From: an uncultured candidate division Zixibacteria bacterium | Lineage (GTDB): Bacteria > Zixibacteria > MSB-5A5 > GN15 > FEB-12 | NCBI GenBank assembly: GCA_963806185.1 | Contig: CAWDXE010000005.1 | Coordinates: 64,001-128,000 of the forward strand | Length of the DNA: 64,000 nt | Reading direction: 5' to 3' | Shown: one piece after another, positions 42,280 to 47,206 of the stretch | Layout: every line of letters starts with the position of its first letter | Position numbering within the stretch: the stretch's first letter is position 1 | Notes under the pieces: model-generated | What the model was told of the DNA's origin: nothing | Seen by the model: only the letters and a program-made list of their open reading frames with translations | The model's database searches: none | Translations under genes and position numbers: made by a program

Positions 42280-44708
<2,429 letters not shown>

Positions 44709-44729
44709 GAATCGACGGCAGTATGTTTG

Positions 44730-44762
44730 AGCGGTCAGGCGATTGAGTCTGGCCGCTTTTTT
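44730..44762 (+). terminator. Intrinsic terminator
   Basis: AGCGGTCAGGC/GTCTGGCCGCT stem followed by a T run. Confidence 0.85.
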
Positions 44763-44779
44763 GTTGGTGGGGTAAGAGA

Positions 44780-45290
44780 GGAGCGTGAGGTCAGACGCCG
44801 CGAGGGCGCAGACCAGGACCTCACGCAACGTGTGAATGGCGTCGGGCTTCGACTTCGCTCAAGTCGACGGTAAGATCATCGAGGAGGAGGCGCGCGGTCG
44901 AGCATGTGGTGGACGAATGCAGATTTGAGGTTGCTTCGTCCCCTTCGGCTCCGCTCAGGGTCCTCGCAATGAGGATAATACAGAACAGACGCTCTCGCAC
45001 CCACCCTCACCCCAGCCCAAAGGGAGAGGGTGAAGAGAAGAGCGTCAGGTCACACGCCGCGAGAGCGCAGCGCAGGGCCTGACGGAACGGGTGAATGGCG
45101 GGATAAGGGCCCCATGGATTCCGGACCGTTGGTCCGGAATGACAATAGTGGCTACGCTTCTGAGATCAGCGAATTGGGAGATCATTTTGCGAGATTAGAA
45201 GGGCAAACCCCTTGTTAAATGGAAAATGGGGTTTGCCCTACGCCTGCTGAGATGCTGAAGCCGCTAAGAGGCGACTTCAGCATGACGAGT
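44780..45290. repeat. Cluster of mixed REP-like palindromic repeats
   Basis: 44913-44973 matches 466-526 with 1 mismatch; 45110-45145 is identical to 342-377; GTCAGGTCACACGCCGCGAG units as near 674. Confidence 0.88.
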
Positions 45291-45315
45291 AACTCGGAGT
45301 TGGATAGGGCCAACG

Positions 45316-45477
45316 TCAGCAACTGACGCAGCAACAATTCGGCGATTTTCCGTCCGCCGTCTTGTCGCCCGGCTTCGGCAGTTTCTCGGGATCGATCGTG
45401 ATCACCAGCTTCTTGCCGTCGTCACTGCGCGAAATCGTGCAGAACGCTTCGGCGTTCGATTCACAACAATCTGACAT
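45316..45477 (-). CDS. 53-aa Cys-rich mini-protein, candidate metal/metalloid-binding protein (not in the ORF track)
   Basis: MSDCCESNAEAFCTISRSDDGKKLVITIDPEKLPKPGDKTADGKSPNCCCVSC; very strong RBS AAAGGAGGTGA; directly downstream of the ArsR gene. Confidence 0.8.
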   Translation of the reverse strand: MSDCCESNAEAFCTISRSDDGKKLVITIDPEKLPKPGDKTADGKSPNCCCVSC

Positions 45478-45500
45478 ACTCATTCACCTCCTTTCAATCA

Positions 45501-45516
45501 ATAGACGAGCGTCTAT
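45501..45516. promoter_or_regulatory. Probable ArsR operator
   Basis: Palindrome ATAGACG-AG-CGTCTAT; degenerate copy ATAAACAACGTTCTAT at 45833-45848 over the ArsR start. Confidence 0.6.
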
Positions 45517-45534
45517 ATAAATGGGCAAAAAAAG

Positions 45535-45834
45535 TCAACGTTTCTTGATGACGATGTCAAGCGTTCCGAGCTGCACACCGCAGCATTCGATGATGGCGTC
45601 CTTGTTGTATTGATAGTAGACCTCCCGTCCGCGCTTTTCACTGGTCACCAGGCCGGCCCGCTTGAGGATGTCAAGATGATGGGAGATCGACGGCTGACTG
45701 ATCGCGAATTGTTCGACGATCTCAGTTACGTTGAGCTCCTTCTTCTTGAGCAGTTCCAGGATGGCCAGGCGGGTTCGGTCGGCCAGCGCCTGAAAGATGA
45801 AACAGCACTGTTCTTTGGGGTCGGTCATATTCAT
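45535..45834 (-). CDS. ArsR/SmtB family repressor with vicinal Cys pairs at both ends
   Basis: FQALADRTRLAIL, SQPSISHHLDILKRAGLV, GREVYY; EQCC and IECCG. Confidence 0.93.
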   Translation of the reverse strand: MNMTDPKEQCCFIFQALADRTRLAILELLKKKELNVTEIVEQFAISQPSISHHLDILKRAGLVTSEKRGREVYYQYNKDAIIECCGVQLGTLDIVIKKR

Positions 45835-45854
45835 AAACAACGTTCTATATGTCT

Positions 45855-45882
45855 ATACGTTGGCCGAGTGAGGAAAGTTCCG
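45855..45882 (-). promoter_or_regulatory. ECF-sigma-type promoter
   Basis: CGGAAC-N17-CGTAT upstream of the ArsR gene. Confidence 0.55.
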
Positions 45883-46078: not shown

Positions 46079-47206
46079 ATGGTGCGAGGGTTCTTTTTAG
46101 TGCTGACGGGAGCCGCTATGATAGTGGCAGTCGGCTGTTCGGACAAGTCGGTCGCTCCGACCACGGAGGATGCCACGTTGCATGGCGGGTATTCCGCCAC
46201 GAATGAGGCACCCGCTTTTGGCGACGCCACGCTGCTTTCGGCGGCTGGCGCTGAAGACGTTTATCCTGACCCCCTGGTGGCCTCACCGTTGTGTGATTCG
46301 CTGTTGGGGTTGACCCGCGTGCATGCCTATCATTTCCGCGCGGTCTGGGGGCATCTGGTCTGCGATTCGACCGAAGAGGTAGTGACCAACTGGGACGGAA
46401 GTCTCGAGCTTTCGCGCGGCGTTGCCCTGTTGCGGCGCGTCATCGCGTTTGAGCCGGCCACTGACTCCGCACTGCCGCGTATCACTCGTCAGAAAATAGA
46501 ATGGGCATCATCGACCCGTCCGTGCAGCGACGGTATCGGGGTCGATCTGATAGTCCCGCCGTCACCGCTGGTGGTTGATACCAGCATGTTGATCGGCGAG
46601 AACAACGACACAACTTATGTATTCGATACGCTTCCGCCGGTATCGGCGACGCTTGCTTTCGTGACCGGCCCGTACTCGCGGATCTTCAACGAAGCGGAGT
46701 TGGCAGCGCTCGACACAATAATCGAGTTACCGGACGGCAACGCCATCTCGTTTACCGCCTTCCCGATCTATGAAGTGCTGTGCCCGCGCGGATCGCTGAC
46801 CGGAGACTGGACGTACACGGCGGACAGCCAGGGCACGTTTATCGGCACGTGGCGCGACAACCATGGTTTCATCTCGGGGTATGTACGCGGTCATTTCGAG
46901 ATCGACGCCGACAGCCAGCATGTGTTTTACGGCAAGTGGATTGATGAATCGGGTCAATTTGAAGGATTCATTCAGGGACAATGGCGCGAGCGGCACTATG
47001 GTCGCGGCAACGGTAAGGGGATGCATCGCTTCGGCTGGTTTAACGGCGACGTACTTACTGCGGACAATGCGGTCATTGGTCGGGTCAAAGCCAAATTCAC
47101 GGCGGGGAAGGAATCCGATGAAGCCGGTTTCTTCCAGGGGCGCTGGAAAGTGAAGTGTATTGGTGAGTCGGGCGACTACGACGACCACATGGAGGACGAC
47201 GACTAG
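46079..47206 (+). CDS. Hypothetical lipoprotein with beta-rich G-x-W repeats
   Basis: RBS AGGAGA; lipobox AVGC; repeated F.G.W strands; acidic tail. Confidence 0.8.
   Translation: MVRGFFLVLTGAAMIVAVGCSDKSVAPTTEDATLHGGYSATNEAPAFGDATLLSAAGAEDVYPDPLVASPLCDSLLGLTRVHAYHFRAVWGHLVCDSTEEVVTNWDGSLELSRGVALLRRVIAFEPATDSALPRITRQKIEWASSTRPCSDGIGVDLIVPPSPLVVDTSMLIGENNDTTYVFDTLPPVSATLAFVTGPYSRIFNEAELAALDTIIELPDGNAISFTAFPIYEVLCPRGSLTGDWTYTADSQGTFIGTWRDNHGFISGYVRGHFEIDADSQHVFYGKWIDESGQFEGFIQGQWRERHYGRGNGKGMHRFGWFNGDVLTADNAVIGRVKAKFTAGKESDEAGFFQGRWKVKCIGESGDYDDHMEDDD

Follow-up and report, generated by a model that had tools for sequence, protein, structure and literature searches.

Within the window, meaning the whole stretch of 64,000 nucleotides that was analyzed, a gene for an ArsR-type repressor is followed by a gene for a cysteine-rich protein of only 53 residues. 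Both genes run in the same direction and are separated by a spacer of 57 nt that includes a T-run. This cassette is environed by ahcY, which is oriented convergently, and by a divergent lipoprotein-like gene; its features are collected in Table 1. As the sequence-only reading that preceded this work had stated, neither an efflux pump nor a reductase is found among the neighbors in the window. The lipoprotein-like gene (46079-47206) belongs to no known family and also adjoins arsR at loci L004 and L005. The stretch from ahcY to the cassette (44700-45300) is occupied by stacked REP-like inverted repeats, short pieces of which match many unrelated contigs, and the two hairpins within this stack were not called by the terminator scan. 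On the same contig, outside the window (G000:C5:53008-53188), a 59-codon ORF with a strong ribosome-binding site encodes a signal-peptide-like N terminus and six Cys in the C-terminal half, its product possibly being a secreted disulfide peptide.

Table 1. Features of the arsR cassette in window coordinates
Feature	Position	Strand	Remarks
Two hairpins after the small gene	45200..45283		Possible transcript end; part of a REP-like repeat stack
Small Cys-rich protein gene, 53 aa	45316..45477	-	CC, C, β-hairpin, Pro-rich linker, CCC-x2-C; probably a divergent member of the unnamed family linked to ArsR
Ribosome-binding site AAGGAGGTGA	45484..45493	-	Same element in relatives
Predicted ArsR operator ahead of the small gene, ATAGACG-N2-CGTCTAT (ATAGAC-N4-GTCTAT palindrome)	45501..45516		Rank 1 of 3,645,671 positions
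T-run immediately after the arsR stop codon	45527..45533	-	In most relatives
ArsR/SmtB-family repressor, 97 aa	45535..45828	-	Cys8-Cys9, Cys82-Cys83; PF01022 and NF033788
Degenerate predicted operator upstream of arsR (autoregulation)	45832..45849		Rank 9 of 3,645,671; extra half-site 45851-45856
Candidate promoter GGAAC-N17-CGTA	45856..45881	-	Same layout before orthologous arsR in L122 and L123

The small protein carries its seven Cys at positions 4, 5, 13, 48, 49, 50, and 53 of the ORF translation and contains no His. A distance of 9 nt lies between AGGAGG and the ATG; an alternative in-frame ATG at 45483 was rejected as the start, being too near to the ribosome-binding site. The synonymous-codon score amounts to 0.22 per codon compared with 0.21 for arsR, and only 1.1% of 2,500 off-frame windows match it. 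Throughout the genome, six of the 53 small-ORF starts that have AGGAGG encode at least five Cys. Coordinates, Cys positions, and the strength of the ribosome-binding site AAGGAGGTGA agree with the sequence-only reading, which had described a small ORF with seven Cys behind a very strong ribosome-binding site.

A metatranscriptome contig of 166 nt matches 45308-45473 exactly (0 differences, no gaps) and has nearly the limits of the ORF itself. Its backing for expression of the small gene is weak because the contig has a depth of 3, the run was picked for containing this stretch of the window, and neither strand nor level can be read from contigs. Translation of the ORF, on which the sequence-only reading had made its proposal depend, thus meets with a matching but thinly covered RNA contig. 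In a control over 20 kb, this contig was the sole full-length piece of run X3, the DNA run X2 yielded pieces only from its selection stretch, and X9 and X10 yielded nothing; hence, uncovered parts prove nothing. Public contigs reproduce 45263-45413 (one difference, outside the small ORF) and 45479-45629 (0 differences) without gaps, and the small-ORF sequence is therefore not an assembly error. The differences from the small ORF listed for a related DNA contig comprise four synonymous and two nonsynonymous changes, at 22% synonymous sites. A frameshift as the cause of the divergent C-terminal half was rejected on the grounds of codon use and these public contigs.

The repressor, its cysteines, and its predicted operators

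The window ArsR scores 60.3 bits with HTH_5 (cutoff 22) and 96.3 with NF033788 (cutoff 55). It has ELNVT (ELNVTEIV) in place of the ELCVC box, whose absence had been recognized beforehand, and possesses only four Cys. These had been described as CC pairs at both ends of the protein, which applies to Cys8-Cys9 near the N terminus; Cys82-Cys83 is instead situated in the middle of helix 5, 14 residues from the C terminus. The parallel drawn to the As(III) sites of the Corynebacterium and Acidithiobacillus ArsRs had to be given up since the window ArsR completes neither of them. None of the three As(III) sites described in PMC11868830 is complete: of the type 1 (R773) site, C-(V/A)-C in helix 3, nothing is found; of the type 2 (AfArsR) site, CCx5C in helix 5, the CC only; and of the type 3 (CgArsR) site, Cys8-Cys9 are there, and the third Cys, which the helix-2/3 region of the partner subunit contributes, is absent. 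The SpArsR-type pattern—CC in helix 5 and no third Cys—matches the motif of the window ArsR, at a position that seems different. Going by alignment ranges and assuming native numbering, the CC appears to lie about 8 residues, or approximately two helical turns, earlier in helix 5 than that of AfArsR, which was itself not retrieved in searches with ArsR C-terminal halves. As judged from the sequence, the site would be a new Cys arrangement. Among PDB sequences, the window ArsR matches SrnR best, the helix-5 Cys of which aligns with Cys82, and no BigR/SqrR-type profile matched the window ArsR above its cutoff.

The orthologs fall into two clades, A and B, the window ArsR belonging to the former. 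An N-terminal Cys together with a helix-3 Cys occurs in 13 of 14 clade-A ArsRs; the helix-3 Cys is present in all 13 other orthologs and absent from the window ArsR. This combination also resembles that of α3N Cd/Pb sensors (available text of PMC11672702). In clade B, helix 5 contains CC and CCx3C in 54/54 ArsRs and CCx5C in 43/54, the latter corresponding to the AfArsR spacing (PMC11672702 and PMC11212059, in the parts that deal with this site).

A palindrome ATAGACG-AG-CGTCTAT had been claimed ahead of the small ORF; it is indeed present and takes the top rank with an operator matrix that was built from the arsR-upstream sites of 13 relatives only, the own genome being left out. It is the sole exact copy of ATAGACG-N2-CGTCTAT in the genome; the 7-bp arms by themselves are common, with several occurring in 2.4 kb. 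The degenerate copy near arsR exists as well but does not cover the start, as had been thought: it is found 4-21 nt ahead of the probable ATG (45828), and the only starts that fall within it are alternative ones farther upstream. It has a near-identical counterpart in L096, and conserved palindromes precede both genes in the relatives.

With this same matrix, the sites before the arsM, arsD, and acr3 genes of the own genome rank 299, 1107, and 1090, respectively, and no operator is recognized there; the regulon predicted for the own genome is therefore confined to the cassette. An arsP-like gene, which follows another arsR, has an upstream site that came first with a less strict matrix and 35th with the stricter one built from the 13 relatives; it was rejected. 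The candidate promoter is putatively ECF-sigma-like by its consensus; a sigma-70 promoter scan gave none on the minus strand.

The small-protein family

Behind each of the three close ArsR orthologs that 61 related genomes contain (61-63% identity), the T-run, a site like the operator, and a strong ribosome-binding site lead to a Cys-rich ORF of 58-64 aa, and the ArsRs of clade B also precede related small ORFs. A profile of 18 small proteins finds matches in 74 of 285 Ca. Zixiibacteriota genomes (77 matches, 76 loci). At 68 of these 76 loci, the small gene lies 59-299 nt (median 82) behind an arsR of the same strand, and the ArsR has Cys in helix 5. The remaining eight comprise two at contig edges, two that code for longer, secreted proteins with repeats, and four orphan genes in which operator and ribosome-binding site are retained. 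Downstream genes differ nearly everywhere; the unit is therefore a stand-alone cassette. In 52/52 family pairs at ≥70% identity, which were picked by identity and are mutually nonindependent, dN/dS is below 0.5, with a median of 0.115. The small-protein family is under purifying selection, and the ORF is conserved beside arsR genes; the latter was the check that the sequence-only reading had named. In one genome (G155), the clade-A small gene is frameshifted (L083:2451-2645), representing a pseudogene or an assembly error.

Outside the phylum, homologs were found under Elusimicrobiota labels, in one of the 401 genomes sampled from the phylum to which G285 belongs, and at 19 metagenome loci. 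At 12 of the latter, the upstream ArsR belongs to a different subfamily and a different palindrome precedes the small gene; most of the others are truncated where the contig stops. Of the 285 phylum genomes, 95 contain the ArsR clade, and 38 extra loci of this clade without a family match were retrieved for comparison of the neighbors. At 14 of these 38, the first ORF, read by eye, is a more divergent small Cys-containing one. Micro-peptides that do without the module also occur behind related ArsRs, namely of 31 aa with 10 Cys (L152:2808-2900) and of 16 aa with six Cys (L154, ORF after arsR). At the post-arsR position, Cys content outlasts the fold.

The 64 intact ArsR-linked members contain a median of six Cys (10.7%). 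A CC within the last 20 residues is common to 62 of them, His is lacking in 52, and CxxC occurs in only nine. By hhalign (93%), the small proteins of the two clades are homologs of each other. Members are labeled by NCBI and JGI only as "hypothetical protein," and searches of an open-access library of papers found no description of the family.

The window protein has no Pfam or NCBIfam match, single-sequence searches return only itself or two chance matches, and with leave-one-out HMMs it scores no higher than shuffled sequences and goes undetected in its own genome. When it is locally aligned to 46 clade-A proteins, the mean score is reached by 0/500 shuffles and by 2/500 shuffles with fixed Cys; for its Cys-free core, 0/1000 shuffles reach the score in the same test. 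For the window protein, hhalign gives an E-value of 0.003 but a probability of 11%. In position, operator, and ribosome-binding site, the gene is equivalent to the clade-A family genes. Taken by its sequence, the window protein is probably a remote, divergent family member.

The family module is a predicted β-β-α unit with Cys-Cys arms. For the window protein, the AlphaFold model shows a hairpin (13-17 / 24-28) at low confidence (pLDDT 53) and was left out of the fold search. A natural tandem duplicate was modeled as two β-β-α units within one domain (pLDDT 64, pTM 0.53). Because this duplicate folds as a single two-module domain, homodimers are predicted for members with a single unit, and dimers of full-module members would cluster at least four Cys-Cys arms. 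The fold search with the tandem duplicate gave no clear match (Foldseek best E 0.13; VIA best Z 7.2, at background level) and returned generic α+β sandwiches, which is not proof of a new fold. A PDB sequence search with the family profile reached a best E of 0.34, and the ESM Atlas contained unnamed clusters only. A prediction of the ArsR dimer in complex with the small protein scored 0.01 and is uninformative either way. A search with representatives gave 96 clusters, including tandem module duplicates and Cys-poor secreted multirepeat proteins. The secreted proteins consist of 2-5 β-β-α repeats, mostly without Cys and without a convincing Pfam match (L094, L097; P0023, P0034, P0037, P0042, P0062, P0066, P0095).

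Clade-B cassettes contain a further element that is absent from the window genome—a micro-ORF of 16-31 codons approximately 60-70 nt after the Cys-rich gene with the pattern MKRF-x-IPR-x-AHCS-x-GC. It is found at 46/76 family loci, 19/38 extra ArsR loci, and 0/14 clade-A loci, with a ribosome-binding site in 45/46; examples are L042:1354-1374 plus 46 other loci (e.g., L033, L046, and L138). The micro-ORF overlaps a nucleotide motif CCCG[AG]GCA[ACT]GAC-N2-4-AAACTG that is kept whatever the position of the stop, and Rfam offers nothing credible for it. Both together could constitute a leader peptide plus an RNA element, or a recombination site.

Gene neighbors and known systems

The best-scoring homolog of the window ArsR among 109 rows is that of L123 (68% identity), which falls into the same group (support 94) of a tree that was built by a quick method, with the placement of L122 left out. 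At L123 and the sister locus L122, a spacing of 26-27 nt separates arsR from a following arsM that passes the curated PRK11873 cutoff. Because ArsR orthologs precede arsM, the balance tilts toward arsenic and away from other metals. In all, arsM occurs at eight of the 38 extra ArsR loci (six of the eight behind a paralogous clade). In L046 and L111, it immediately follows the small gene. Only 1/68 ArsR-linked loci of the phylum and 1/19 metagenome loci have arsM beside the small gene. None of acr3, arsA, arsC, and arsP adjoins any of the 134 loci (96 + 38; flanks 1.5-4 kb). Carriers of the family are not enriched in arsM (38/73 compared with 124/212 noncarriers, in genomes that are incomplete and related). 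This speaks against ArsM as a partner that the small protein cannot do without, and at the level of whole genomes it lends arsenic no support. Thiol-redox neighbors are found too, with AhpD-like genes at 6/19 metagenome loci and also OsmC and MsrAB. At L143-L148 and L150, paralogous ArsRs precede a TGA-interrupted ORF and/or arsM; this ORF, which we take to be Rdx/SelW-like, is a possible selenoprotein.

Elsewhere, the own genome encodes full ars clusters with arsM, arsDA, and two acr3. One cluster (G000:C7:79812-95355, outside the window) includes an ArsD-AhpD/CMD-like fusion, arsA, acr3, arsR, arsC, and an arsP-like permease; a second acr3-arsR-arsC (G000:C1:340605-342438) and a lone arsM (C1:1036091) also lie outside the window. 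The lone arsM is 61% identical to the ArsR-linked arsM of L122. The cassette therefore adds to other defenses: of the "minimal" sequestration system proposed initially, a pump-free pair of genes remains, but not a sole defense.

Among characterized systems, the cassette resembles SmtB-SmtA and BxmR-BmtA in its predicted layout, in which an ArsR-family repressor controls a Cys-rich cytoplasmic protein of approximately 55 aa by a logic of sequestration (as outlined in part of PMC12193353). The window protein shares metallothionein traits in the broad sense (53 aa, 13% Cys, predicted ArsR operator). Compared with SmtA and BmtA, however, its family has terminal CC pairs around a β-hairpin, mostly no His, and few CxxC; the at least eight Cys and the His ligands given for SmtA/BmtA in that part of PMC12193353 contrast with seven Cys and no His in the window protein. 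Neither the window protein nor 17 relatives match the Pfam model of bacterial metallothioneins at E up to 1. In contrast to SmtB-SmtA, the genes are co-directional with a predicted operator before each, and their context points to arsenic; the DxHx10Hx2(H/E) zinc site of SmtB is missing from the window ArsR.

ArsD, an As(III) metallochaperone, shares vicinal Cys with the window protein. The latter is about half the size, however, has no ArsD Pfam match, and no arsA occurs at the 134 loci; the own genome has a separate arsD-like gene beside arsA. The dissimilarity to SmtA and ArsD that the sequence-only reading had asserted is borne out by the lack of a Pfam match to either. AntR-AntC of Comamonas testosteroni likewise combines an ArsR-type regulator with a protein that sequesters a group-15 metalloid, Sb(III), but, in the accessible account, AntC is encoded with the AntA pump, a P-type ATPase (PMC12641948); no ATPase is located beside the window cassette. 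For the repressor, the closest comparison is with AfArsR, SpArsR, and CgArsR, where the place of the ELCVC box is taken by vicinal Cys of helix 5 (and of the N terminus) (portions of PMC11868830, PMC11212059, and PMC11672702). The window ArsR differs from AfArsR in that its CC lacks a third Cys and seemingly lies earlier in helix 5, and from CgArsR in the absence of the third Cys. SrnR-SrnQ of Streptomyces griseus also pairs an ArsR, with its helix-5 Cys aligned, with a partner of no known family; it senses nickel and regulates sodF, according to the available text of PMC7055735. The small-protein family is undescribed, and the regulatory logic is already known from SmtB-SmtA and AntR-AntC.

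Proposed mechanism, rival explanations, and meaning

We propose that ArsR represses both genes, that As(III), methylarsenite, or Sb(III) releases it, and that the induced small protein traps the metalloid with no pump linked to it, a reading to which we assign a probability of roughly 0.55. Herein, ArsR likely binds the palindromes before its own gene and the small gene. The trivalent metalloid would then bind to the vicinal Cys of ArsR and bring about its release. The strongly translated small protein would bind the metalloid on its CC arms in the cytoplasm and lower the free pool, and sequestration would add to the efflux and methylation encoded elsewhere in the genome. Methylarsenite would be the favored ligand of the window ArsR because two-Cys sites suit methylarsenite, with SpArsR as precedent, and helix 5 has no third Cys; SpArsR, with two Cys, responds to methylarsenite and not to As(III) (as presented in the relevant part of PMC11868830). 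A wider formulation is held more tentatively and below even odds: that of an arsenic-dedicated, metallothionein-like bacterial family with a dimerizing β-β-α scaffold, the Cys-Cys arms of which would trap arsenite or methylarsenite after induction through an ArsR with a new site, and which would spread as a pump-free cassette through a quarter of the Zixiibacteriota and also into other anaerobe lineages, with the micro-ORF as third element in the commonest form.

Clustered thiols bind any soft ion, and the protein could thus be a metallothionein-like sink for Cd, Hg, Cu(I), or Zn under a CadC/BxmR-like ArsR instead of serving arsenic. The SmtB-SmtA precedent (PMC12193353, in part) and the resemblance of most clade-A ArsRs (13/14, with N-terminal and helix-3 Cys) to α3N Cd/Pb sites (section of PMC11672702) speak for this. 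We nevertheless consider it unlikely, given the orthologous ArsRs that precede arsM, the little His and few CxxC of the family, and the missing helix-3 Cys of the window ArsR itself; among the first downstream ORFs, moreover, no metal-efflux ATPase or CDF was recognized by eye. If arsenic is the substrate, the small protein might, like ArsD or AntC, act as a chaperone or thiol reductant for the ArsM, ArsA, or Acr3 of other loci, to which it would pass As(III), methylarsenite, or electrons. A folded and conserved module suggests a surface for protein contacts, the next gene downstream is arsM in L046 and L111, and the own genome offers arsM, arsDA, and two acr3 as partners. Such a role is decidedly unlikely with 35/73 carriers showing no arsM match and no enrichment (in genomes that are incomplete and related), no ArsD Pfam match, and a module that can be lost at the post-arsR position. 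Alternatively, ArsR might sense oxidants or persulfides by its vicinal Cys and induce the small polythiol as a thiol/redox or reactive-sulfur buffer. Genes for AhpD-like proteins, OsmC, MsrAB, and a presumably Rdx-like selenoprotein after related ArsRs would fit, as would the ECF-like candidate promoter; redox-sensing ArsRs are known (available part of PMC11672702). However, NCBIfam contains AhpD-like domains fused to ArsM, and AhpD-like neighbors therefore fit arsenic too; with no BigR/SqrR-type match above the cutoff besides, a redox buffer is very unlikely.

Two further explanations concern the pair itself. The small protein could bind ArsR as a co-sensor or anti-repressor, as SrnQ does with SrnR, the top PDB match of the window ArsR with its helix-5 Cys aligned to Cys82, and the tight gene linkage would agree with this. 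Yet the small-protein family also pairs with a quite different ArsR subfamily, the ArsR clade often occurs without the small protein, and a cassette without further targets would have nothing but itself to regulate, which makes this role highly improbable. That the window copy is a decaying remnant of a once functional family gene is next to negligible: the replacement of the helix by a Pro-rich linker, the failure of HMMs to find the protein, and the loss of the helix-3 Cys in ArsR would point that way, but the ribosome-binding site is intact, the operator perfect, the codon bias that of a coding sequence, and an RNA contig exists, and four of the six listed differences in the related contig, at 22% synonymous sites, are synonymous.

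Returning to metalloid trapping under ArsR control, the defenses against As(III) treated in the accessible part of PMC11868830 are efflux and transformation, and intracellular chelation is assigned there to eukaryotes. If true, a repressor-controlled sequestration of arsenite or methylarsenite in bacteria would be a missing route of defense, in bacteria of sediment and aquifer type. The locus offers a directly testable candidate of 53-64 aa, together with an ArsR whose undescribed Cys arrangement may be useful for biosensors.
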